A DNA stretch of 64,000 nucleotides, from the NCBI GenBank assembly GCA_005779395.1, contig SXJP01000028.1:1-64000 (forward strand), in the 5' to 3' direction. Made by a program: the position numbers and the translations under genes. The stretch is from Actinomycetota bacterium. GTDB lineage: Bacteria; Actinomycetota; Acidimicrobiia; IMCC26256; PALSA-610. Positions 3,367 to 14,249 of this stretch are shown here, one piece after another. Each line of letters opens with the position of its first letter. Position 1 is the first letter of the stretch. Below the pieces are notes generated by a model that saw nothing but the letters and a program-made list of their open reading frames with translations, did not search any database and was not told the DNA's origin.

Positions 3367-4430
3367 CCCGCCGAGTCCTCGACGCCGATGCACACGTCAT
3401 CGAACCGTACGGAATCTTCGGCGATGCACAGAGCCTCGACCGAAACCCCATCGACATACCTCCCACAACGCCAACTAACGCATGTGGCGGCGCCGACCTC
3501 AGTGACCAGTGGGAAAATCGCTGGGATGCTCCCTCATACCTGCGCGCAATGGACACCCAAGCGATCGATGCGGCGGTCCTCTACCCCTCGGTCGGGCTAT
3601 TCGTTCCGTTTCAGGCAGACATTGACAGTGCCCAGCAAACAACCGCATGTTCGGGCTATGCAGAATGGATTGCGGGTTACTGCGATAGTGCGCCATCTCG
3701 TCTCGCCGGAGTAGGCATCGCTCCACTAGCCGACCCTTTGGCGGCTGCATTCGAGGCGCGTCGTTGCGCCGCGCTCGGCTTAGTCGGCATACTCGCTCGT
3801 CCGAACTACCTATATGGCCGGAGCCTCGGCGACCCTGCTTACGACCATCTGTACGACGTACTAGAGGAACACAGTCTGGTCCTGGCCGTACACGAAGGCA
3901 TGGGGTTGCGTGGTGGCCCGACCCTCGGCGCCGATCACTTCGCGAGTTTCGCCGGGCGACACCTTTGTTCGCATCCAATGGAGCAGATGGCAGCGCTGGC
4001 GTCGCTGGTATTGGGTGGTGCGCTCGAGCGTCACCCTTACTTGAAAGTTGCTTTCCTCGAAAGCGGAACCGGGTGGTTGCCCTACTGGCTAGCGCGCCTA
4101 GACGACCACATCGAGTGGATGTCAGACACCGAAACCAAGCATCTTTCACTCAGCGCGACGGAGTACTTCAAGCGGCAATGCTGTATTTCTTCGGACCCCG
4201 AAGATCGCCTCGCCGCACAGACTTGCGAAGTAGTTGGCGCCGACCGGATGATCTGGGCAAGCGACTTCCCCCACCCCGATGCCGCATTCCCTGATGCGTT
4301 GCTCGAGTTCGAAAGCAACAACCCGGGACTCGACAAAGAATCTGCGACAGCGATTCTGTGGGACAGCCCCGTGGACTTTTACGGCCTACATCAGCGATTC
4401 TTGTCAGCAGCTGTGGCTAGTACCGGTTGA
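3363..4430 (+). CDS. Amidohydrolase-2 (PF04909-like) metal-dependent hydrolase
   Basis: VLDADAHVIEP at the N-terminus, AVHEGMG, and WASDFPHPD at the C-terminus. The probable TTG start at 3363 overlaps the SDR stop (TTGA). Confidence 0.7.
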   Translation: MTRRVLDADAHVIEPYGIFGDAQSLDRNPIDIPPTTPTNACGGADLSDQWENRWDAPSYLRAMDTQAIDAAVLYPSVGLFVPFQADIDSAQQTTACSGYAEWIAGYCDSAPSRLAGVGIAPLADPLAAAFEARRCAALGLVGILARPNYLYGRSLGDPAYDHLYDVLEEHSLVLAVHEGMGLRGGPTLGADHFASFAGRHLCSHPMEQMAALASLVLGGALERHPYLKVAFLESGTGWLPYWLARLDDHIEWMSDTETKHLSLSATEYFKRQCCISSDPEDRLAAQTCEVVGADRMIWASDFPHPDAAFPDALLEFESNNPGLDKESATAILWDSPVDFYGLHQRFLSAAVASTG

Positions 4431-5319
4431 GCTTCACTAAGTAGGCAGCCATCGCCGAGGTTGTTTCGGCTGGCCGTTCTTGTTGGGTCCAATGGCCACA
4501 GTTGTCGATCACGACCTTCACGAGATTTGGGACACGTTCTTCCATGCCGTCTGCCATCGCAGGCGTTAGCACCGGGTCATCTGCTGCAGAAATCATGAGG
4601 CACGGCACATCGATCTTGCGATCTGCCCAGCCTTTAGATAGTTCCCAGTTTCGGTCGAGGTTTCTGTAGTACTCGATCGGTGGGGTTAGCGCGCCGGCGG
4701 GCCGAAATGCAATCTTGAACTGTTCGAGAATCTCGTCTGGAAACGCATCCGGGTTCTTCACCATGTCATTCAAGAAAATCATTTCTATGAAGTCATCGTG
4801 TCCTTTGCCCCAAGAAAAGATCCATTCCGCTACCCCGCGGTCTTGAAAACCGATTATGTAGATCGGTGTGTCAGGAAAGACCATCCGGAGCATCTGCACG
4901 GGCGGGATCGGACTGCGTGCCAGGTCAGGCGTGTTGACACCGATGACACCGGCAGTCATCTCGGGGAATTGGCGAGCGAAGTTCCATACCAAAATTCCGC
5001 CCCAATCATGGCCTGCAACTACAACGGTTTCGTGTCCGAGTGCGGTAACTAGGGCCGCGAGTGCGCCGTTCAGGAACACGATGTCATAGTCGACATCTGG
5101 CTTGTCAGTACGGCCGTAGCCAGGCAGGTCTGGTGCTACGACATGAAATCCGAGGGCAGCAAGCGCGTCGATCTGGTGGCGCCATGACAACGCAATTTCT
5201 GGGAATCCGTGGCACAACAGAACTAGTGGGTCGGCTGAGTCACCTGCTTCGAGACAAAAGAATCGCATTCTGTTAGCAACCACATAGCGCTCCCTCACGG
5301 GGCCGCACAGTACCGCCAA
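4417..5319 (-). CDS. Alpha/beta hydrolase, epoxide hydrolase / haloalkane dehalogenase-like
   Basis: LLCHGFPEIALSWRHQ, VVAPDLPGYGRTDKP, and GHDWGG nucleophile elbow. The start codon is ambiguous (TTG at 5319 or ATG at 5268). Confidence 0.75.
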   Translation of the reverse strand: MAVLCGPVRERYVVANRMRFFCLEAGDSADPLVLLCHGFPEIALSWRHQIDALAALGFHVVAPDLPGYGRTDKPDVDYDIVFLNGALAALVTALGHETVVVAGHDWGGILVWNFARQFPEMTAGVIGVNTPDLARSPIPPVQMLRMVFPDTPIYIIGFQDRGVAEWIFSWGKGHDDFIEMIFLNDMVKNPDAFPDEILEQFKIAFRPAGALTPPIEYYRNLDRNWELSKGWADRKIDVPCLMISAADDPVLTPAMADGMEERVPNLVKVVIDNCGHWTQQERPAETTSAMAAYLVKLNRY

Positions 5320-5387
5320 CTCGATGTATGCATAGCCACGAAACGTCTGAAGCGCCTCGATGCGACCGTCACTAACGTGAATACACG

Positions 5388-6140
5388 ATGACTGGACCAG
5401 TCCGACCAGAAGATGCTGACGTGACCGATTACGTCGGGTTGCTCGATGTCGACGAACGCCTCGGAACTCGGGTCGGGCGTCGCATCGTGTTGGGCCTCAT
5501 GGGCGCCGGAGCCGCTGGCATTATTTTCGGGCGACCGATTCAGGAAAAAACCGCTCAGGTCATCTCCGGTGTGCCTGGCCTGAACCAACTGCCAGTCGGC
5601 GGTCGCTGGCGGATCTACACAGTCACCGGCGGACTACCGAAGCGTTCGCAAGCCGACTACTCGCTTCGGATACACGGACTCGTCGATGAGGAACTGACCT
5701 TCAGCTATGAGCAGCTACTCGAACTTGAGCCAACCCATCTCACCAAAGATTTTCAGTGCGTTACAGGTTGGCGTGTCGAGGATGTGAAGTGGACAGGAAT
5801 ACGGCTCGCAGATCTGCTCGATGCTGCTGGCGTGCAAACGAGCGCGACTGCGCTGCGGTTCTTTAGCTTCGACGGCATATACACAGAGAGCCTGACTCTC
5901 GCTCAGGCCCGCCGTGACGACGTGATCGTTGCGTACTCGATGCTCGGCGATGACATCACCCGCGCTCACGGTGGTCCCGTTCGGTTGTATGTCGCGCCGA
6001 TGTACGGCTACAAGAGCATCAAGTGGTTAGAGAGCATAGAAGTCACAGACGAAGTCGTTCCGGGATATTGGGAGCGCCGGTTCTACGCGGTCGACGCGTG
6101 GATCGGAAACTCAAACGGGCGCAATGACAATCCCGTCTGA
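5388..6140 (+). CDS. Sulfite-oxidase-family molybdopterin oxidoreductase (MsrP/YedY-like) with a Tat-type signal
   Basis: RRIVLGLMGAGAAG twin-arginine N-terminus, FQCVTGWRVEDVKWTGIRLADLL, and GGPVRLYVAPMYGYKSIKWLESIEVTD. Confidence 0.75.
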   Translation: MTGPVRPEDADVTDYVGLLDVDERLGTRVGRRIVLGLMGAGAAGIIFGRPIQEKTAQVISGVPGLNQLPVGGRWRIYTVTGGLPKRSQADYSLRIHGLVDEELTFSYEQLLELEPTHLTKDFQCVTGWRVEDVKWTGIRLADLLDAAGVQTSATALRFFSFDGIYTESLTLAQARRDDVIVAYSMLGDDITRAHGGPVRLYVAPMYGYKSIKWLESIEVTDEVVPGYWERRFYAVDAWIGNSNGRNDNPV

Positions 6141-6777
6141 GATACCTGCGCGCATCGCGCGCTTCGCTCCGACTGTGCGTGTAGTACATGCATTAAATGC
6201 GATCGGCTTCGGCTTACTCACCTTCACAGGTGCTGCGATGTACGGAGCGCCGGGAACACAGTGGGTTGGACGACGCGACCTAGTACGCAATGTTCACGTG
6301 TGGGTCGGCATTTTCCTGCTGCTTCCCCTGATCGTCGGTCTCGCTTCAAGCTCGGGGTTGCGTGACGACTTCAGGCGACTGTCGCGTTGGAGCGCAGAAG
6401 ACAAGCGGTGGTGGTTTAAGTCAAAGCGCACGGAAGTTCGGCTCGGAAAATTCAATCCTGGCCAGAAGGCCAATGCGAGTTTCACACTCGCGGCTCTGCT
6501 CGCACTTCTCGGAACTGGCGCCATCATGAAGTGGTACTCGCCGTTCGGCGACGACTGGCGCACGGGAGCAACTTTCGTCCACGACTGGACTGCACTAGCC
6601 CTCGGGCTAGTCGTAATCGGCCACATCTACATGGCGATACGCGACCGCTCTGCGCTCGACGGGATGATTCGAGGCACTGTCCCATCTGAGTGGGCAGCCA
6701 CCGGACGACCCCGTTGGTATTCCGAAGTCATACAAGCGTCTGAAAATGATGCAAGCGATTTGGGCGACTCTCGATAG
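6124..6777 (+). CDS. Membrane b-type cytochrome (cytochrome b561 / Ni-Fe hydrogenase b-type cytochrome family), partner of the Mo enzyme
   Basis: VRVVHALNAIGFGLLTFTG with a conserved His, four predicted TM helices, and a 17-nt overlap with the upstream Mo-enzyme gene. Confidence 0.6.
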   Translation: MTIPSEIPARIARFAPTVRVVHALNAIGFGLLTFTGAAMYGAPGTQWVGRRDLVRNVHVWVGIFLLLPLIVGLASSSGLRDDFRRLSRWSAEDKRWWFKSKRTEVRLGKFNPGQKANASFTLAALLALLGTGAIMKWYSPFGDDWRTGATFVHDWTALALGLVVIGHIYMAIRDRSALDGMIRGTVPSEWAATGRPRWYSEVIQASENDASDLGDSR

Positions 6778-6788
6778 GGTCAATACCA

Positions 6789-7931
6789 ATGGAAAATGCG
6801 CCCATGAGTAAAAAAATGGTTATTCCAACTGACCTATTGCCACTTGATGGACGTTTCGGGTCAGGACCAAGCAAGGTCCAGACCCAGTTCGTGTCCAAGC
6901 TTGCATATGCAGCACCGAGATTCCTTGGTACGAGCCATCGCCAACCTGCCGTGCGTTCCGTGGTCGGAAAAATGCGCTCAGGAATGCGCGACCTTTTCGC
7001 GCTGCCGGACGGCTACGAAGTGCTACTCGGCAACGGAGGAAGCACATCGTTCTGGGATGCCGCAAGCTTCGGACTTGTACAAAACCGTGCTCAGCATTGC
7101 GTTATCGGTGAGTTTTCGAGCAAGTTCGCAACCGTCAACACCGCAGCACCGCACCTCGGGCAACCCGAAATTATCGAGACGGCGCCAGGCCAGACGCCAA
7201 CCCCGTGTCGCATGAACACCGACATCGATACCTATTGCTTCGTTCACAGCGAAACGAGTACCGGCGTAACGATGAACGTCGAGCGACCAGACGGCGCAGA
7301 CGGCATCGTTCTCGTAGACGCCACAAGTGCCGCAGGCGGCTTGCGTGTAGACCCCGCCCAGTTCGACGTCTACTACTTCGCTCCGCAGAAGTGTTTCGGC
7401 GGCGATGGAGGGTTGTGGATCGCACTCGTATCTCCGGATGCCGTCGCTCGCATCGAGTCGCTGAGTCAGACCGATCGCTGGCGTCCTGCCTCACTTGATC
7501 TTGGTATCGCGCTCGAACAAAGTCGACTCGATCAGACCTACAACACGCTGGCACTTGCGACTGTGTTCCTTCTCGCCGAGCAAGTCGAGTGGATGCTCGA
7601 CGGTGGTGGCCTCGAAGGTATGGCACAGAGAACCGACTCGAGCGCGACAACGCTTTATGGCTGGGCAGAAAAGCACCCTCTCGTCACACCGTTCGTGAGT
7701 GACACCCGGCACCGGAGCAATGTGACTGCGACACTCGACTTCGACGCGTCAATCGACGCAGCTGCAGTCGCTAAGACTCTGCGATCCAACGGAATCATTG
7801 ATACCGAGCCATATCGCAAGCTCGGTCGCAACCAACTCAGGATCGCGATGTTCCCGAACATTGACCCGTCCGACATCGAGCGACTCACAGCTTGCCTCGA
7901 CTACGTCCTAGAGCGATCAACTACTGCCTAG
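6789..7931 (+). CDS. serC: Phosphoserine aminotransferase SerC (actinobacterial type)
   Basis: DGRFGSGPSKV, LGTSHRQPAVRSVVGKMRSG, and GYEVLLGNGGSTSFWDAASFGL are collinear with mycobacterial SerC. Confidence 0.9.
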   Translation: MENAPMSKKMVIPTDLLPLDGRFGSGPSKVQTQFVSKLAYAAPRFLGTSHRQPAVRSVVGKMRSGMRDLFALPDGYEVLLGNGGSTSFWDAASFGLVQNRAQHCVIGEFSSKFATVNTAAPHLGQPEIIETAPGQTPTPCRMNTDIDTYCFVHSETSTGVTMNVERPDGADGIVLVDATSAAGGLRVDPAQFDVYYFAPQKCFGGDGGLWIALVSPDAVARIESLSQTDRWRPASLDLGIALEQSRLDQTYNTLALATVFLLAEQVEWMLDGGGLEGMAQRTDSSATTLYGWAEKHPLVTPFVSDTRHRSNVTATLDFDASIDAAAVAKTLRSNGIIDTEPYRKLGRNQLRIAMFPNIDPSDIERLTACLDYVLERSTTA

Positions 7932-7940
7932 AGTTGCACC

Positions 7941-9368
7941 GTGGCACTAGCCGACGGATTCGTAGTTTTTGTCAAGCGAGACTGCCCGACATGCGAGGTA
8001 ATTGTCCCGACTCTCCGCGCAATCGCGAAGGAACTCCCCCTCACCGTTTTCACTCAAGATGACCCAGCGTTTCCAGAGGGCCTATCACCAATCAACGACA
8101 CTGACCTCAACAAGTCTTTCGAGTTTGAAGTCGAGACAGTCCCGACACTGTTGAAGGTCGAGGCAGGGGTCGTCACCGAACGTCTTGAAGGTTGGTTACG
8201 GTCAGCCTGGCAAGAAGTAACGGGGTTACCTGATATTGGCGCGGAACTTCCGGAATACAGACCAGGGTGTGGAAGCCTGACTAACGACCATGCAGTTCTC
8301 GATGCGCGCTTGGTCGTTAACTACGCCTCGGAACTCAGTAGCCGCACGGTTTCATTAGGAGCAGATGAAGACGACGTCGAAGCGATATTCGAGCGGGGTT
8401 GGACCGACGGACTCCCTGTCGTACCTCCTACTGTCGAGCGCGTCGCACGCATGCTGGCTGGTACAACGCGCGAACCAGATGAGATAGTCGTGCTCGCGCC
8501 ACCTGACCTCGTCGAATGCACTATCGAAAAGATCGCAATCAACGCTGTGATGGCCGGATGCAAGCCCGAATACCTACCCGTTGTCATCGCCGCCGTGGAA
8601 GCGGCGTGCACCGAATCGTTCAATGCTCACGGACTCCTGTGCACGACTTATTTCAGCGGCCCTCTAGTACTCGTGAATGGCCCGTACTCACGCGTGATTG
8701 GAATGAACAGTGGAGTGAACGCCCTCGGGCAAGGCAACCGAGCGAATGCGACAATCGGGCGCGCGTTGCAGCTAGTGATTCGCAACGTCGGTGGTGGACG
8801 CCCAGGCGAGATCGATAGAGCAACGTTGGGCAACCCTGGTAAGTACACCTTCTGCTTTGCTGAAAGAGAACATGATTCGCCGTGGGAGCCATTCCATGTC
8901 GAGCGCGGGTTCGACGAACGCCAAAGCACGGTAACGCTTTTCGCGGCAAGTGGCGTGCAACCAGCCGTCGACCAGCTAAGCCGAGAACCAGAAGAGCTCG
9001 CACGAAGTCTCGCTGCCTGTTTGCGAACAGTCGGCCACCCCAAAAACGTCTACGTATGGGACGCCATGCTCGTAGTTAGCCCAGAACACGCACGCGTCTT
9101 TGGCGAAGCCAGCTGGAGTAAACAACGGGTCCGCGACGAAATCACGTCAGCGTTGCAGATTTCGGCCGATGAGATCATCAAGGGCGCAGGTGGAATTGCT
9201 GAAGGCGTGCCAGAGCAACTCAGCGGCACATCCATTCCGAAGTTTCGAGAAGGAGGCTTGCAAATCGTTCACGCTGGTGGAGATGCAGGTTTATTCTCGG
9301 CAATCATCGGTGGATGGGCGAGTGGCGCAGTCGGTTCCGAAATCATCACGAAGGAGATCACGCTATGA
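7941..9368 (+). CDS. Fusion protein with an N-terminal thioredoxin-fold domain (CPTC) attached to an unrecognised domain of about 370 aa. Translationally coupled to the downstream selenoprotein gene.
   Basis: GTG start. VVFVKRDCPTCEVIVPTL CxxC motif. No signal peptide. The stop TGA overlaps the ATG of the next gene (ATGA at 9364..9368). Confidence 0.6.
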   Translation: MALADGFVVFVKRDCPTCEVIVPTLRAIAKELPLTVFTQDDPAFPEGLSPINDTDLNKSFEFEVETVPTLLKVEAGVVTERLEGWLRSAWQEVTGLPDIGAELPEYRPGCGSLTNDHAVLDARLVVNYASELSSRTVSLGADEDDVEAIFERGWTDGLPVVPPTVERVARMLAGTTREPDEIVVLAPPDLVECTIEKIAINAVMAGCKPEYLPVVIAAVEAACTESFNAHGLLCTTYFSGPLVLVNGPYSRVIGMNSGVNALGQGNRANATIGRALQLVIRNVGGGRPGEIDRATLGNPGKYTFCFAEREHDSPWEPFHVERGFDERQSTVTLFAASGVQPAVDQLSREPEELARSLAACLRTVGHPKNVYVWDAMLVVSPEHARVFGEASWSKQRVRDEITSALQISADEIIKGAGGIAEGVPEQLSGTSIPKFREGGLQIVHAGGDAGLFSAIIGGWASGAVGSEIITKEITL

Positions 9369-9877
9369 CCACGATCTTGGACCCAACTTCCGAGCGCGTG
9401 CCTGCGACTCGGTCGCTTACACCACGGCCGGCTTCCCTCGACGGCCTTACTGTTGGGTTGCTCGATATCGGTAAGCCACGCGGCGACGTTTTTCTGAACC
9501 GGATCGAAGAGTTGCTCACCGCGAATGGCACCACGGTCTTGCGCTACCGCAAACCGACATTTACAAAACCCGCTCCAATTGACCTTCGGCAAGAAATTGC
9601 ACTGAATTGCGATGTCGTTATCGAGGCATTGGCCGATTGAGGGAGTTGCGCGTCGTGCAGTGTGCACGACACCGTGAATCTCGAAGGCGCAGGCGTGCCA
9701 ACCGTTTTCGTGGCTTCGAGCGCTTTCGTAGCCGCGAGCGCCGCGCAAGCGTCTTCTCTCGGCGCTAATCCAGCTTCGGTTTTTGTTGCTCACCCGATCC
9801 AGGATCGCACGAACGACGAAATTATTGCGCTCGCCGAAGCTGCCTTCGGCGAAATCCTGATTGCGCTAACCGCCTAA
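9364..9877 (+). CDS. Candidate UGSC-type selenoprotein (171 aa). TGA at 9638..9640 is read as selenocysteine in the motif ADUGSCASC (UxxCxxC).
   Basis: ORFs 9314..9640 and 9662..9877 are in the same frame, separated only by TGA. The frame stays open for 79 codons after the TGA. The next codons encode G-S-C-A-S-C. A perfect hairpin lies 11 nt downstream of the TGA. Confidence 0.7.
9652..9670 (+). promoter_or_regulatory. Candidate bacterial SECIS hairpin
   Basis: GTCGTGCA-gtg-TGCACGAC: a perfect 8-bp stem with a GUG loop, starting 11 nt 3-prime of the in-frame UGA. Confidence 0.55.
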
Positions 9878-11016
9878 GACTGCGCTGTACCGCCAAGCTT
9901 GCCGCCTAGTTCTGGACACTCGCCTGCGAACACTCCCCAACTGCAATCCCAACCCGGCGCAACCCACGCGTGGGTCATCCAGATGTGTTTCATCAGTTCA
10001 CCGGATTTCTTGCCGCCACGGGCAATGCATTCTTCTTCGGTTGCATTTTCCCCGGCGACGACAGTGAAGTTTTCGTCGAGGCAAAGGCCGCCGTTGGCGT
10101 TGTGCTGGTGCCAAATGTCGTTAGCGCCAGCAAAACCTTCGGGAACTCCTGATGCATCGAGCACGAGGTAGCTGAGCCCAATGATTCTGCTGGTCGGATC
10201 TGTACCTTCATATAGCAACTCAGATGGTGCCGCAGGGTTAAACCCAGGCACCCGAGAGATGTTCGTGTAGTGAGCGCCAATGCATGGCACAAATACTGTG
10301 CTCTCTTTATATCCGGCTGCGAGCGCATCAGCGACGGTCGGGAACTCGTCGATCACGGTTCGGGCCTGTGCCATCTGAACGATCAAGGTCTCTCGCTCGG
10401 CGTTACTAAGCGGAAATTGCTTCACGAGTCCACGGTGCCCGTGGTCTCCAGCGGCTTGGCCTTCTTGGCCGCCGTCTCCAGAGCCAGCCTGGCCAGGCGA
10501 AGCAGGCGTTGGAGATGAGATCTCACATGGAGAGGTCCCGTCTGCTGTCCCAGGAATTACTTCGCCAGCAGCGATAGCCACGTCGCCGTGGTCCATGTCG
10601 TGGTTTGCTGCTGTGGTCGGTGTCGCGTCGTCGCCCTGATGATCTGCACCCGATGTTGTCGCAGTCGTGTCTTCGGCGTGGTGATCCATCTCTGCAGGCT
10701 TGGAGTACGAACTCGAATCGGCCACCGCGGCTGTCACACCAATCAGTGCGATAACGAACACACCAGCAAGAACTTTCGGGCCAGCGTTTGTGCCGCTTAG
10801 TATGCGTTCACCGAACGCCAGCACTAAGGCGCCAATGCCAACAATGCAAGTCGCCGCAAAAAACAAAACATGGGTCGGAACACCGAAATCGAAGATCGCC
10901 TCGCTCTGCGCTAAGGCGTCGTCATCGACATAGCGGAACCAATCGATGAGCAGTGAGAGAACAAGAGTCGTGGCTCCGACGCCAACGAGTGAGGTTCCGA
11001 GTTTGCGTGCGCTCAT
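9874..11016 (-). CDS. Membrane protein with three N-terminal TM helices, a His/Asp-rich disordered linker and a Cys-containing C-terminal domain. Function unknown.
   Basis: DHHAEDTT, HDMDHGD and DHGHRG His clusters. It is convergent with the selenoprotein gene and the two stop codons overlap. Confidence 0.6.
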   Translation of the reverse strand: MSARKLGTSLVGVGATTLVLSLLIDWFRYVDDDALAQSEAIFDFGVPTHVLFFAATCIVGIGALVLAFGERILSGTNAGPKVLAGVFVIALIGVTAAVADSSSYSKPAEMDHHAEDTTATTSGADHQGDDATPTTAANHDMDHGDVAIAAGEVIPGTADGTSPCEISSPTPASPGQAGSGDGGQEGQAAGDHGHRGLVKQFPLSNAERETLIVQMAQARTVIDEFPTVADALAAGYKESTVFVPCIGAHYTNISRVPGFNPAAPSELLYEGTDPTSRIIGLSYLVLDASGVPEGFAGANDIWHQHNANGGLCLDENFTVVAGENATEEECIARGGKKSGELMKHIWMTHAWVAPGWDCSWGVFAGECPELGGKLGGTAQS

Positions 11017-11098: not shown

Positions 11099-12244
11099 CT
11101 AGAGAGCGCACGTAGCAGCGCGGTTGGCTATCGCTGCAGTACGTCGCCACTCTCGCAAGACATTCTCATCTAGACCGTTCGTCAGATAACAAAATGAGAT
11201 GCCAGTTTCGGGGTCGGCGAATGCGATCTGGCCACCAGCGCCGCCATGTCCAAATGTCCGCGGCGAACAGGTACGACCGAAGCCCCGCATGGACGCCCAC
11301 TTGTCGCCACCTTGGATAACGAGGCCGAGGCTGCGGTTGGCCGGGATTCCGCGTAGATCAGGAAGACTGTTGCGCACTTCGGAGGTGAACGCCTGTTTGG
11401 TCTCGCTCGTCCATGGTCCAGCATGAAGTAACGCTTGATAGAACCGTACGACTCCGACCGCCGTCGCCACACCACCACCACCTGGGACACCAAGCTGCAA
11501 GACTTCGTCGCGGCTAAAAGACAAGAGCTGCTCTTCGGGGATTACAGAAACGCCGAGATCGCGCACGCCGAGCGCTGCCTCTAACTCATCGGGCGATGCT
11601 GGCTCACCACACAACACGGGCCTGTTGATTTCAGCGAGATGCTCTGGGGGCACGCCGATCTCTACGTCGTCTAGTTGGAGCGGGTCGATGATCTCCTCAC
11701 GTAGAAACTGTCGATAGTCGCGCCCATCGAGAATTTCGATGAGTTCGGCGAGGACCCAATGCGCAGTCGTTGCGTGGTACTCGTACTTGGTCCCTGGTTC
11801 TGCGTTGAGTCGCCATTTCGCGAACGCTTCGAGTCTGCCTTCGCGGCTGTCCCACAGTGGCGGTCCGAGCGGAGCGTAAGCAAAGCCGCTCGTGTGCAAC
11901 ATCACCTGCTCGAGCGTGATCTCAGACTTGCCGTTGGTTGCGAACTCTGGAATCAACGCAGAGATCTTGGTGTCGAGCGTGATCTTGCCATCTTGCAGCA
12001 ACAACCAAAATCCACTCGCAACAAATGCCTTGGTAGCCGAGTACATGACATACCGACTCGATGGTGCAACTTCGCCGATTGTCTCGAAGACACCAACTTC
12101 ATTGTTGCGAGCGATCGCTAGTTGACAGCTCGGCAACAAACCACTGTCGACTTCTTGACGGGCACGGTCGATGAGTGCATCGACTTTGGTTGGGTCTAAG
12201 CCGATTGCTTCGGCGCCGACTATCTCGGCGTACTCACTCTTCAT
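11099..12244 (-). CDS. Beta-lactamase-family serine hydrolase (class C / esterase-like)
   Basis: YSATKAF SxxK motif. ATG at 12244 lies 1 nt after the flotillin stop (TGAcATG). Confidence 0.75.
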   Translation of the reverse strand: MKSEYAEIVGAEAIGLDPTKVDALIDRARQEVDSGLLPSCQLAIARNNEVGVFETIGEVAPSSRYVMYSATKAFVASGFWLLLQDGKITLDTKISALIPEFATNGKSEITLEQVMLHTSGFAYAPLGPPLWDSREGRLEAFAKWRLNAEPGTKYEYHATTAHWVLAELIEILDGRDYRQFLREEIIDPLQLDDVEIGVPPEHLAEINRPVLCGEPASPDELEAALGVRDLGVSVIPEEQLLSFSRDEVLQLGVPGGGGVATAVGVVRFYQALLHAGPWTSETKQAFTSEVRNSLPDLRGIPANRSLGLVIQGGDKWASMRGFGRTCSPRTFGHGGAGGQIAFADPETGISFCYLTNGLDENVLREWRRTAAIANRAATCAL

Positions 12245-12245
12245 G

Positions 12246-14249
12246 TCAGGCTGGTTGCTCCTCAACTGCCACAAGCTCCGGTGAGGGCGACTGCAACAAT
12301 TTAGACAGGCCTTCGCCGTTCGTGAGTGTTCTCATCAAGGTCGCGGCTAGGCCTTCGACAGCCCCGCCTCCACCAGTCACCAAAACCTCCGGCACGATAG
12401 TTATCTTGCCCTCCGCAACTGCGTTTGCGACCGCAACCAATGCTGTCGCTATCTCGCCGATGGCTTCGCGCTGAGCCTTAAAACCTTCGGCACGACCTAG
12501 TCCGAGCGCTTCAACTGCCTTGCCTTCGGCAAGACCAATCGCTTCGATCTTTGCAGCTTCAGCACGACCTGTCAGTTCCACATAGCTCGCCTGGCCACGA
12601 GCCTCTGCTTCACGCGCTAGAGCCTCGTTCTGTTTTATGCCAACGCCGACCTGAGAGGCTGCGAGTTGCGCTTGCATCTCGGCCGTTCCCTTCGCCTTTT
12701 CCATTTCGACACGAGCGACTTGGGCGCGTTCTTCCTCCGCAAAAGTCGCCTTTTCTTGGTTGGCTATCTCCCGTTTGGTGAGAACGTCGACTAGCTCTGG
12801 CGGGAAAACGACATCTTGAATGTAGACACCTTTGGTCTCAACCTCATACAAACCGAGGTACTGCATGATCGCCGTGAGCGCAGCCTGCTGGACTTCCATT
12901 CGAGTTTCGATGAAGCGGACAGCCTCTAGGTCTTGAAGTGTGTTGCGGAAATGGTTTCCTACCGCAGATTGCAACACTTCGTTCACGAGATTCAACATTG
13001 TGCCGACCATCGAAATGACTTTCGGAGCGCGCGTGTCCGGAACGTGAATCTGAACTTGAAGTTCGATTCGAAACACGAAACCCTCGCGGCTCTTACCTTC
13101 GATTGGTTTCAGGTTCGCGTCGAGACAATGAGCCGTTGACACCGTCTCCGACCAGTTCAATGTCAGGATTGATGTCGGCACGATCTCGGCCGCATAACAG
13201 CGCGAGTTGATCGGGTACTTGCCTGTACGCAGTGGTTCCTGCCATATACCGCGGTGCCCGGGACGCACGATCGAACCGAACTTGAACTCGGTGCCTGAAG
13301 TGTCACTCGTTGGTAAGCCGACATACGCCTTGATTACTGCGACCTCGCCTTGGTTGACGACAAGCATCGGGACAAGTTCAACCTGAATCAAGAACGGGTT
13401 CAGCAAATAAGCGCCGTACAAAAGTGGGTCGTGTTGCAGTCCGATCTTGCCTCCGTGGGTAATGAAGCTCTGAAAATCTTGGTAGTTGTTGTGCAGGTTG
13501 TTTTTATTGCCGAGAAGCACGTCGATGATGTCAGCGTCGGTAGCTCCAGCAGCCTCGAGCGGTTCGACATCTGCGTACCCGCCAAGCCGATTCGCAATGT
13601 CTCCAGAAGGCAACGGCTCGCCTTCGAGCGCAGTCACTATGCCGACGATGTCTTGCGGGCCATCTGGTGCTATCACCATTACCCGTAAGTGTTCTGGTGC
13701 GAGGCCGAATGATTCTGGACGCATCACTCCACCAGTAGCCCGAGCGCGTTGTTCAAGCTCCGGTGCCACAGGTACGCCGTAAACCTGCCGTGCGCTAATT
13801 ACTAGAAATGCGACAGGATGAATCGGGATAAGAGTTCCCGGAGGAAGCACAGGTCGTTGGACTCCCTTTTCGCCTCCGCCTTCTATGAAAGGGCGGACAC
13901 TCGAGAAGTTCCCGAACGATGCAACATAGACACCGCTCTTGGCGCCTATCGGCAGTGGTTTTCCGACTTGCGCAACTACGACTCCAATTTCGCCGGCCGG
14001 AATCTGCACCCACGGGTGCTTCTTCACACCGAAGATCGGCCAAAGCTTGAAGCGCACACCGGGCATCAATAGGTCTGCCTGATACCCAGCTTCACCACTA
14101 AAGGCAATCGGGTTGTCGTCTCTTAATTTCTTGAACGAGAAGTGTTTGGTGACGAGACCAATCTGTGTTGGGCCGATGATGTTGATCGACTGCCATGTGG
14201 CGATTACCACTATGACAATGGCCACCGAGGCAAGTATCTGAACGATCAT
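12246..14249 (-). CDS. Flotillin / SPFH (band 7) family protein
   Basis: N-terminal TM helix, SPFH core, and a C-terminal Ala/Glu-rich coiled-coil flotillin tail (AEEERAQVARVEMEKAKGTAEMQAQ...). Confidence 0.8.
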   Translation of the reverse strand: MIVQILASVAIVIVVIATWQSINIIGPTQIGLVTKHFSFKKLRDDNPIAFSGEAGYQADLLMPGVRFKLWPIFGVKKHPWVQIPAGEIGVVVAQVGKPLPIGAKSGVYVASFGNFSSVRPFIEGGGEKGVQRPVLPPGTLIPIHPVAFLVISARQVYGVPVAPELEQRARATGGVMRPESFGLAPEHLRVMVIAPDGPQDIVGIVTALEGEPLPSGDIANRLGGYADVEPLEAAGATDADIIDVLLGNKNNLHNNYQDFQSFITHGGKIGLQHDPLLYGAYLLNPFLIQVELVPMLVVNQGEVAVIKAYVGLPTSDTSGTEFKFGSIVRPGHRGIWQEPLRTGKYPINSRCYAAEIVPTSILTLNWSETVSTAHCLDANLKPIEGKSREGFVFRIELQVQIHVPDTRAPKVISMVGTMLNLVNEVLQSAVGNHFRNTLQDLEAVRFIETRMEVQQAALTAIMQYLGLYEVETKGVYIQDVVFPPELVDVLTKREIANQEKATFAEEERAQVARVEMEKAKGTAEMQAQLAASQVGVGIKQNEALAREAEARGQASYVELTGRAEAAKIEAIGLAEGKAVEALGLGRAEGFKAQREAIGEIATALVAVANAVAEGKITIVPEVLVTGGGGAVEGLAATLMRTLTNGEGLSKLLQSPSPELVAVEEQPA

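Follow-up and report, generated by a model that had tools for sequence, protein, structure and literature searches.

A domain of no catalogued family that accompanies the UGSC selenoprotein in many bacterial phyla

The window analysed here, a 64,000-nucleotide (nt) stretch of contig SXJP01000028.1 from an Actinomycetota bacterium of the class Acidimicrobiia, contains a gene for a 475-amino-acid (aa) protein that overlaps the start of a gene for a UGSC-family selenoprotein. The protein, which we call Trx-X, begins with a thioredoxin-like domain and continues into a large C-terminal domain, X, that lacks a catalogued family. What is domain X, and does its place beside a selenocysteine (Sec) protein reflect a shared function? 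An initial annotation of the locus had proposed a thiol/selenol relay pair, and possibly a new two-component reductase. That idea, which we infer rather than observe, fits all of the linkage data reported here. Judged by its relatives, the Trx-X gene is real, far beyond chance: its product has homologues in at least 8,000 clusters at 90% identity (E ≤ 0.001), a figure that is a lower bound, and the best 120 of them align over their full length with 709-808 bits and 64-73% identity.

Genomic linkage of X and UGSC

Is the selenoprotein gene a regular companion of Trx-X? We assembled 80 Trx-X-seeded genome loci from different species. They span Acidimicrobiia, Actinomycetes, Desulfobacterota and other 'Deltaproteobacteria', Myxococcota, Burkholderiales, Pseudomonadales, Chloroflexota, Nitrospirales, Dormibacterota, Hydrogenedentota and spirochaetes, and include records labelled Candidatus Blastococcus massiliensis AP3 (L022) and Rhodoferax (L012, a metagenome-assembled genome). 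UGSC was present in 76 of the 80, directly downstream on the same strand in 75 and 5.1 kb away in one. Two of the four UGSC-negative loci end at or within 97 nt of the Trx-X gene, which leaves 78 informative loci; UGSC is thus directly downstream in 75 of 78. The ATGA overlap reported for the window was also borne out, with the Trx-X stop codon TGA at 9366-9368 and the next ATG at 9365-9367. A 4-nt stop/start overlap recurs in 60 of the 76 loci with UGSC (ATGA in 51, GTGA in 9).

The same association was seen from other starting points. Stand-alone X served as the seed for 80 metagenome loci, and in 67 of them a UGSC gene is adjacent, on either side of X and nearly always split at the Sec codon. 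Some metagenome loci hold arrays, arranged U-X-X-U (L125, L163) or X-X-X (L142). Loci seeded with UGSC itself contained three full-length Cys-form UGSC genes, and each of the three follows a Trx-X gene, the two overlapping in the same way. A gene for a redoxin-X protein has UGSC one gene away. Finally, X and UGSC are fused to each other in both orders. Our co-occurrence analysis thus contradicts the possibility that other genomes lack the linkage, whichever seed was used (75/78, 67/80 and 3/3) and in view of the fusions. We conclude that X and UGSC behave as a near-obligate pair in which the thioredoxin or redoxin domain is optional. ORF (open reading frame) clustering across the 160 X-query loci yielded no third conserved gene, and no PrdH, GrdA, GrdC/D or PrdC.

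How is X deployed across its family? The C-terminal 376 residues of Trx-X match 5725 representatives of 50%-identity clusters at E ≤ 0.001, and 1477 at E ≤ 1e-30. We classed the architectures of the best 150 representatives with local hidden Markov models (HMMs), checking examples against Pfam. X stands alone, fragments included, in 83 of the 150; it follows a thioredoxin or redoxin domain in 35, is fused as UGSC-X in 16 and as X-UGSC in 4, and is duplicated as X-X (or X-X-X) in 12. Most UGSC-X proteins begin right after the Sec codon and all X-UGSC proteins stop at it, a pattern typical of gene calls cut short at the UGA. Overlapping tandem pairs of stand-alone X genes are seen as well, and tandem or fused X duplicates are frequent, at times with a UGSC gene on either side. 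The X-X proteins (P0147, P0166, P0179, P0192, P0253 and P0264) are about 715 aa long. These tandems and fused duplicates suggest that X works as a dimer or heterodimer. The thioredoxin or redoxin module, from its distribution in the family, is an optional, interchangeable add-on to X, which is the usual pattern of an electron-donor add-on; the MsrAB-Trx arrangement in PilB and plant adenosine phosphosulfate (APS) reductase are precedents.

Anatomy of Trx-X and its selenoprotein partner

The initial annotation had described the residues after the thioredoxin-like part as one unrecognised domain of about 370 aa. They are indeed unrecognised, but not a single domain: an alignment of 55 homologues (64-73% identity), compared with stand-alone relatives, resolves them into a 35-aa linker and a 345-aa domain X, so that the protein has three parts (Table 1). 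The strings that had been quoted from it lie at residues 9-25 (VFVKRDCPTCEVIVPTL), 205-211 (AGCKPEY) and 220-238 (EAACTESFNAHGLLCTTYF).

Table 1. Features of the Trx-X/UGSC locus in window coordinates
Feature	Position	Strand	Description and basis
Trx-linker-X protein gene	7941..9368	+	475 aa, GTG start, TGA stop; ORF list and sequence
Thioredoxin-fold domain, residues 1-95	7941..8225	+	Fold and motif
C15-P-T-C18 redox motif	7983..7994	+	Read directly; all four residues invariant in 55 homologues
Linker, residues 96-130	8226..8330	+	Invariant P108-G-C110-G-S112 (nt 8262-8276); 55-homologue alignment
Domain X, residues 131-475	8331..9365	+	Uncatalogued, about 345 aa
C207 codon	8559..8561	+	Motif A-x-N-A-V-M-A-G-C; sole Cys invariant across the whole X family
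C305 codon	8853..8855	+	P-G-K-Y-T-F-C-F-A-E; nearly invariant
ATGA stop/start overlap, Trx-X gene/UGSC gene	9365..9368	+	Read directly; 4-nt overlap kept in related loci
UGSC-family selenoprotein gene	9365..9877	+	170 aa; Sec codon TGA 9638-9640; motif U92-G-S-C95
Selenocysteine insertion sequence (SECIS)-like hairpin just after UGA	9641..9682	+	Conserved core GUCGUGCA-GUG-UGCACGAC at 9652-9670

The claim of a thioredoxin-like N-terminal domain with a CxxC motif was confirmed by its fold and by the invariance of CPTC in the alignment. We used an AlphaFold2 model of full-length Trx-X, with a predicted local distance difference test score (pLDDT) of 79 and a predicted template modelling score (pTM) of 0.61. 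Residues 1-95 have the beta-alpha-beta-alpha-beta-beta-alpha order of the thioredoxin fold, with the CxxC at the start of helix 1 (residues 16-20 in the model). An invariant T-V67-P68-T occupies the place expected for the cis-Pro loop, before strand 69-74. No curated thioredoxin-type model scored above its cutoff (TraF, 17.6 bits, cutoff 23; TIGR01068 thioredoxin, 13.4 bits, cutoff 96.8), and the domain is a divergent member of the thioredoxin fold recognised by fold and motif, not by sequence profile. The N terminus, read directly, has neither a signal peptide nor a membrane segment; for this reason we place Trx-X in the cytoplasm, with thioredoxin reductase within reach.

Relatives carry CPVC, CDTC, CETC or CATC in place of CPTC. 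Redoxin-type domains ahead of X have CETC, CATC or CPTC, which makes them thiol-disulfide reductase-like and not peroxidatic. The linker motif, R/x-P-G-C110-G-S, recurs as PGC(G/A)S in the redoxin-X fusions, whose N-terminal domains are of the TlpA/redoxin type with a CxxC, and is missing from stand-alone X.

Domain X is marked by the motifs G-W-T-D-G-L-P-V-V-P-P-T, A-I-N-A-V-M-A-G-C207, N-G-P, G-x-G-x-R-A-N-x-T-x-G-R-A, P-G-K-x-T-x-C305-x-A-E, S-P-W and A-G-G. C207 was invariant in alignments A2, A3 and A5 and in both halves of the X-X fusions, preceded by an invariant Gly (G206). The model puts it between helices 65-75 and 79-92 of X, and it appears to cap a helix N terminus. The 'several conserved-looking Cys' of the initial annotation hold for C207 family-wide but not for the others: C223 and C193 are clade-specific, C233 varies, and C305, kept in Trx-X, redoxin-X and stand-alone X, is V, L or I in the X-X fusion proteins.

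Does X belong to a known family or fold? Scans of the window protein (E ≤ 1) and of 10 stand-alone X proteins (E ≤ 10) against Pfam and NCBIfam returned only scattered, unrelated weak matches, HMMER filters discarding most matches above E of about 0.1 and so limiting the depth of the E ≤ 10 scans. A PDB sequence search for X relatives found nothing, either with a single protein or with a 20-sequence profile, and no PDB fold matched X convincingly. The earlier statement that the region matches no recognised family can thus be extended: X has no catalogued family in Pfam or NCBIfam and no solved fold in the PDB, its novelty of fold being judged against solved structures only. The folds listed nearest to it were YjgF/Rid, AroH chorismate-mutase-like, 'Toblerone' (cyclic amide hydrolase) and class I fumarate hydratase, and there were weak echoes of Fe-S hydro-lyases and HypA. 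At most, a sub-domain of the modelled X may have a Rid/chorismate-mutase-like topology. Alignment and model place glycine-rich loops, G-Q-G-N-R-A and N-V-G-G-G-R-P-G, at helix N termini. We considered a Rossmann GxGxxA or a Walker A motif in G-Q-G-N-R-A and G-N-P-G-K-Y-T; spacing, the secondary structure of the model and the lack of a fold match ruled both out.

We then turn to the partner. Read through its in-frame TGA (...ALAD-U-GSCASC...) and with U replaced by C, the window's UGSC protein matches PF24696 with 154.8 bits (cutoff 25; E = 3e-45) and NF041046 with 153.5 bits (cutoff 125). Of the Trx-X genome loci, 75 extend over the Sec position, among them the one with UGSC 5.1 kb off, and all 75 have an in-frame stop codon there, TGA in 74 and TAG in one. 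The TAG locus, L022:7668-7670 from Candidatus Blastococcus massiliensis AP3, has an intact SECIS-like sequence downstream; its TAG might stem from a sequencing error, mark a pseudogene or have an odder cause. The hairpin after the UGA has a minimum free energy of -28 kcal/mol (z = -1.9), and within its core RNAalifold predicts five pairs, from 9654 to 9668. All 30 homologues compared preserve the core stem, which is nearly invariant, wobble positions included, one pair alternating among GC, GU and AU. Such conservation is what one would expect of a bacterial SECIS element. No tRNA-Sec gene and no other Sec machinery was found within the window.

Cys forms of UGSC are rare: PMC2398784 gives 21 Cys against 255 Sec forms in Global Ocean Sampling (GOS) data. 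That rarity, and Sec in 75 of 75 Trx-X partners, suggests that Sec matters to the chemistry. Close UGSC homologues (P0373-P0483) stand in the databases nearly always as N-terminal fragments, mostly of 93-114 aa and called 'hypothetical protein' where they are named at all, a systematic mis-annotation that arises because the UGA is taken as a stop.

UGSC also recalls part of a known selenoprotein. Seven of nine UGSC sequences, the window's included, match models of GrdB, GrdF, GrdH, 'various selenoprotein B' or PrdB (TIGR01917, NF040794, TIGR01918, NF040795 and TIGR04483) with E-values of 9e-5 to 0.04. UGSC residues 75-145 align to positions 333-398 of the GrdB model and residues 79-129 to positions 139-188 of the PrdB model, spanning the Sec region; the Sec of PrdB is U151 (PMC11229817). 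UGSC thus seems, weakly but repeatedly, to resemble the Sec region of GrdB/PrdB.

Candidate mechanisms and neighbouring genes

What might X and UGSC do together? The reading we prefer, with a confidence that goes no further than halfway, is that they form the core of a two-subunit Sec-dependent thiol/selenol oxidoreductase with the thioredoxin domain as electron donor. The 475-aa protein would be the non-selenoprotein subunit of a complex, UGSC from the overlapping downstream gene the other, and domain X and UGSC together the catalytic core. C207 would probably be a reactive thiolate, near invariant Arg, Asn, Asp and Glu residues that make a probable substrate or partner site. UGSC would supply the U92-x-x-C95 redox centre, similar to the Sec region of GrdB/PrdB. 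Each turnover would leave a selenenylsulfide or a disulfide that is internal to UGSC or links U92 to C207. In the Trx-X clade this oxidised centre would be re-reduced inside the complex, electrons flowing from C15-P-T-C18 and probably passing through linker Cys110; the linker P-G-C-G-S may be seen as an echo of U-G-S-C. A relay through Cys110 would resemble the multi-Cys relays of thioredoxin-coupled ArsC and MsrA. Thioredoxin reductase of the cell, with NADPH, would in turn recharge the thioredoxin domain. Because no conserved pathway genes lie nearby, we favour a general small-molecule or repair substrate for the putative reductase over a dedicated catabolic route.

A more specific form of this proposal is tentative. 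X may be a catalytic domain with an undescribed fold and, with UGSC, constitute a new selenoenzyme class widespread in aerobic soil and freshwater bacteria. The pair would then be a minimal relative of the Stickland-type GrdB/PrdB enzymes, carrying out Sec-dependent reductive cleavage or the reduction of an oxyanion or organic compound with a built-in thioredoxin relay. G206-C207 might act as the reactive thiolate or even as a pyruvoyl precursor.

Several observations weigh against a Sec-dependent oxidoreductase. Clustering of the 160 loci gave no conserved third gene that points to a substrate. X resembles no known reductase subunit, with no GrdE/PrdA match (in scans whose HMMER filters drop most matches above about 0.1) and no convincing PDB fold. 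The UGSC matches to GrdB/PrdB are far below the curated cutoffs, and the scores of the full-length model of Trx-X are only moderate. The U-x-x-C motif is not universal, since the second Cys is missing from some Cys-form UGSC relatives (CGTST, CGASS), and a 563-aa UGSC-X fusion (P0222) has W-S-G-V, with no Cys at all. The second Cys is gone in the non-Sec relatives P0246, P0249, L101 and L137, which read C-G-T-S-T or C-G-A/S-S-S. Relatives with such a degraded redox motif may be inactive or mechanistically different variants.

Could the roles of the two proteins be those of AhpF and AhpC instead? UGSC would then catalyse the final step, perhaps as a Sec peroxidase or as a Sec-thioredoxin that acts on other proteins, and Trx-X would be its dedicated reductase. 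X would draw electrons from NAD(P)H or another donor via an unrecognised cofactor, and C207, C110 and CPTC would relay them to UGSC. We consider this unlikely. The pairing evidence fits it as well as it fits the oxidoreductase that we prefer, and the layout mirrors ahpF-ahpC, in which a thioredoxin-fold CxxC is joined to a large domain and the partner gene is adjacent. The glycine-rich loops of X at helix N termini could hold a nucleotide or another anion, and one stand-alone X-X locus is followed by genes resembling alcohol dehydrogenase (ADH) and thioredoxin reductase. X bears no signature of a flavoprotein disulfide reductase: there was no Pyr_redox match in Pfam or NCBIfam and no noteworthy Rossmann-fold match, and X has a single invariant Cys.

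Another possibility, quite improbable in our estimate, is that the pair is an analogue of component B of glycine or D-proline reductase together with its partner. X would be a proprotein cleaved between G206 and C207, with C207 turned into an N-terminal pyruvoyl group to which an amine substrate binds. Attack of U92 on the alpha-carbon would lead to reductive cleavage of a C-N (or C-X) bond, and the resulting Se-S bond would be reduced via the thioredoxin domain. The likeness of UGSC to the GrdB/PrdB Sec region speaks for this, as those proteins are always paired with a pyruvoyl-Cys partner, GrdE/PrdA, in which a single essential Cys becomes the pyruvoyl group (in PrdA, at T420 and C421; PMC11229817). 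X likewise has exactly one universally invariant Cys, placed after an invariant Gly, its invariant Arg residues could bind a carboxylate, and the usage of UGSC is strongly Sec-dependent. However, the Pfam and NCBIfam matches included no GrdE/PrdA family (Gly_reductase), either for Trx-X (E ≤ 1) or for the 10 stand-alone X proteins (E ≤ 10), and the loci hold no PrdH-like maturation gene or other conserved third gene. C207 lies between two helices in the model, unlike known self-processing sites, which are found in loops between strands. The X-X fusions moreover have the Cys in each half, so that two cleavages would be needed.

The chances are similarly slim that X is non-enzymatic and acts as a scaffold, a chaperone or a partner that handles metals, metalloids or selenium (Hg, As, Se, or a metal bridged with the U or C of UGSC). 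The U-x-x-C-x-x-C-x-x-H of the window's UGSC and the one invariant Cys of X could make a four-ligand site, there is a weak HdrC-like match, and the weak fold echoes of X are to Fe-S hydro-lyases and HypA. As a separate candidate, we rejected a bridging metal or Fe-S site made of U-x-x-C-x-x-C and C207. In most of the wider UGSC family a W takes the place of the third Cys, and some members have no second Cys; that the stretch is under SECIS constraint in the Trx-X clade weakens such a site further.

Incidental operon packing of two independent proteins, to which we give next to no chance, is effectively refuted by adjacency in 75 of 78 loci across many phyla, overlaps in 60 of 76, the 67 of 80 wider-family loci and the fusions in both orders.

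The genes around the pair were also surveyed. A phosphoserine transaminase gene at 6789-7931 (+) (TIGR01366 serC_3, 510 bits) ends 9 nt before the Trx-X start. This synteny is seen in 6 of 80 loci, the closest Acidimicrobiia only. No promoter-like or terminator-like site was found in 6500-10300, so co-transcription of serC and Trx-X is possible. Further upstream are two overlapping genes, one at 5388-6140 (+) for a protein with a molybdopterin oxidoreductase domain (PF00174, E = 4e-41) and one at 6124-6777 (+) for a membrane protein of the cytochrome b561 type (PF01292), a duo that looks like YedY/MsrP with a b-type cytochrome partner. The molybdopterin oxidoreductase accompanies Trx-X only in the four closest Acidimicrobiia loci (4/80). 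Base composition is uniform and thus gives no sign of a recent island.

An alpha/beta hydrolase gene occurs in 15 of 80 Trx-X loci. Its HGFP motif, read in one cluster representative (L003), is epoxide-hydrolase/dehalogenase-like. All twelve loci listed for it are labelled Actinomycetota or Acidimicrobiia, counting two 'Bifidobacterium breve' metagenome-assembled genome (MAG) records. In L003, L014, L046, L047, L052, L057 and L076 it lies directly upstream of Trx-X on the same strand, at about 5050-5985 (+). A distant relative, with 24-28% identity in the listed matches, is encoded on the opposite strand of the window at 4417-5319. The hydrolase may reflect lineage synteny or may hint at a substrate.

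On the other side of the pair, a convergent 380-aa ORF lies at 9874-11016 (-), its 4-nt overlap with the UGSC gene taking in the stop codon. Pfam has no match for this ORF, which shows an apparent N-terminal membrane region, a His/Asp-rich stretch and then a Cys-rich C-terminal part; homologues lie near Trx-X in 3 of 80 loci only. A gene for a beta-lactamase-family serine hydrolase (PF00144) is found near UGSC both in the window, at 11099-12274 (-), and in the redoxin-X locus L081/L082, at 8782-9978 (+), the two records being one contig deposited twice. Elsewhere it occurs in just 1 of 80 Trx-X loci (L016), and its proximity is probably coincidental. Downstream of a stand-alone X gene, L083:1219-2920 (+) carries an ADH_N/ADH_zinc_N gene and a gene for a 312-aa thioredoxin-reductase-like (Pyr_redox_2) protein. 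A TrxB-like gene is present in about 3 of 80 metagenome loci, a set separate from L083. Such a neighbour may be the external electron donor where no thioredoxin domain is fused.

Earlier work and comparison with known systems

UGSC was first reported in 2007, as a selenoprotein without known function, and Hyphomonas neptunium is reported to carry it. Zhang and Gladyshev (PLoS Genet 2008; PMC2398784) describe a 'UGSC/Unknown_1' fusion, Unknown_1 being a conserved domain with conserved Cys. Unknown_1 is probably X. With that fusion noted in 2008, the linkage of X to UGSC is not wholly new; its scale, the anatomy of the protein and the outcome of the fold comparison are. The UGSC family is the same in both studies, and UGSC-X and X-UGSC fusions are common in our data. 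Function, gene-neighbourhood analysis, Trx-X or redoxin-X architectures and structure do not appear in that paper. A 2026 review still counts UGSC among selenoproteins with largely uncharacterised functions, and our literature search found no other mention of UGSC in a functional context.

New here are a near-obligate pairing that holds across phyla, the joining of X to a thioredoxin or redoxin domain with a third, putative relay Cys, and the single universal Cys of X. The absence of X from domain databases, its lack of a solved structural relative and the repeated GrdB/PrdB signal in UGSC are new as well. The function of UGSC now becomes experimentally approachable, through an almost obligate partner whose very large family is absent from all of Pfam, NCBIfam and the PDB and, in one major clade, through a built-in thioredoxin-type donor. 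The X-UGSC pairing thereby gives experimenters a concrete way to approach what a major orphan selenoprotein family does. The analysis also flags thousands of UGSC genes as mis-annotated, truncated hypothetical proteins of about 93 aa, the UGA having been taken for a stop. If the GrdB/PrdB link is true, Stickland-type selenium chemistry would reach aerobic Actinomycetota, Burkholderiales, Myxococcota and other groups.

How does the pair compare with systems already known? AhpF-AhpC, the MsrA/B-Trx protein PilB, plant APS reductase and peroxiredoxin-glutaredoxin (Prx-Grx) hybrids all join a CxxC thioredoxin-fold domain to a larger redox protein, as Trx-X does, and the fused protein is encoded beside or within its partner. 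Reductases of the AhpF-AhpC type use multi-Cys relays to carry the disulfide outward. X, however, has none of the catalytic folds of those enzymes, and its partner is a selenoprotein family without an assigned activity.

The likeness to GrdB+GrdE, GrdF+GrdG, GrdH+GrdI and PrdB+PrdA lies in the division of labour. No Prd structure had been solved as of 2024 (PMC11229817). In each case there are two subunits, a U-x-x-C selenoprotein and a larger co-encoded partner that is not a selenoprotein. The oxidised Se-S centre needs re-reduction by a thiol system, and Sec is rarely swapped for Cys. In contrast to the Grd and Prd proteins, UGSC has just 170 aa and lacks most of GrdB, X shows no sequence relationship to GrdE/PrdA, and no PrdH, GrdA, GrdC or GrdD genes lie near X and UGSC. 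The hosts differ too, being mostly aerobic soil and freshwater bacteria and not Stickland fermenters, and in Trx-X the reductant module is fused to the partner subunit.

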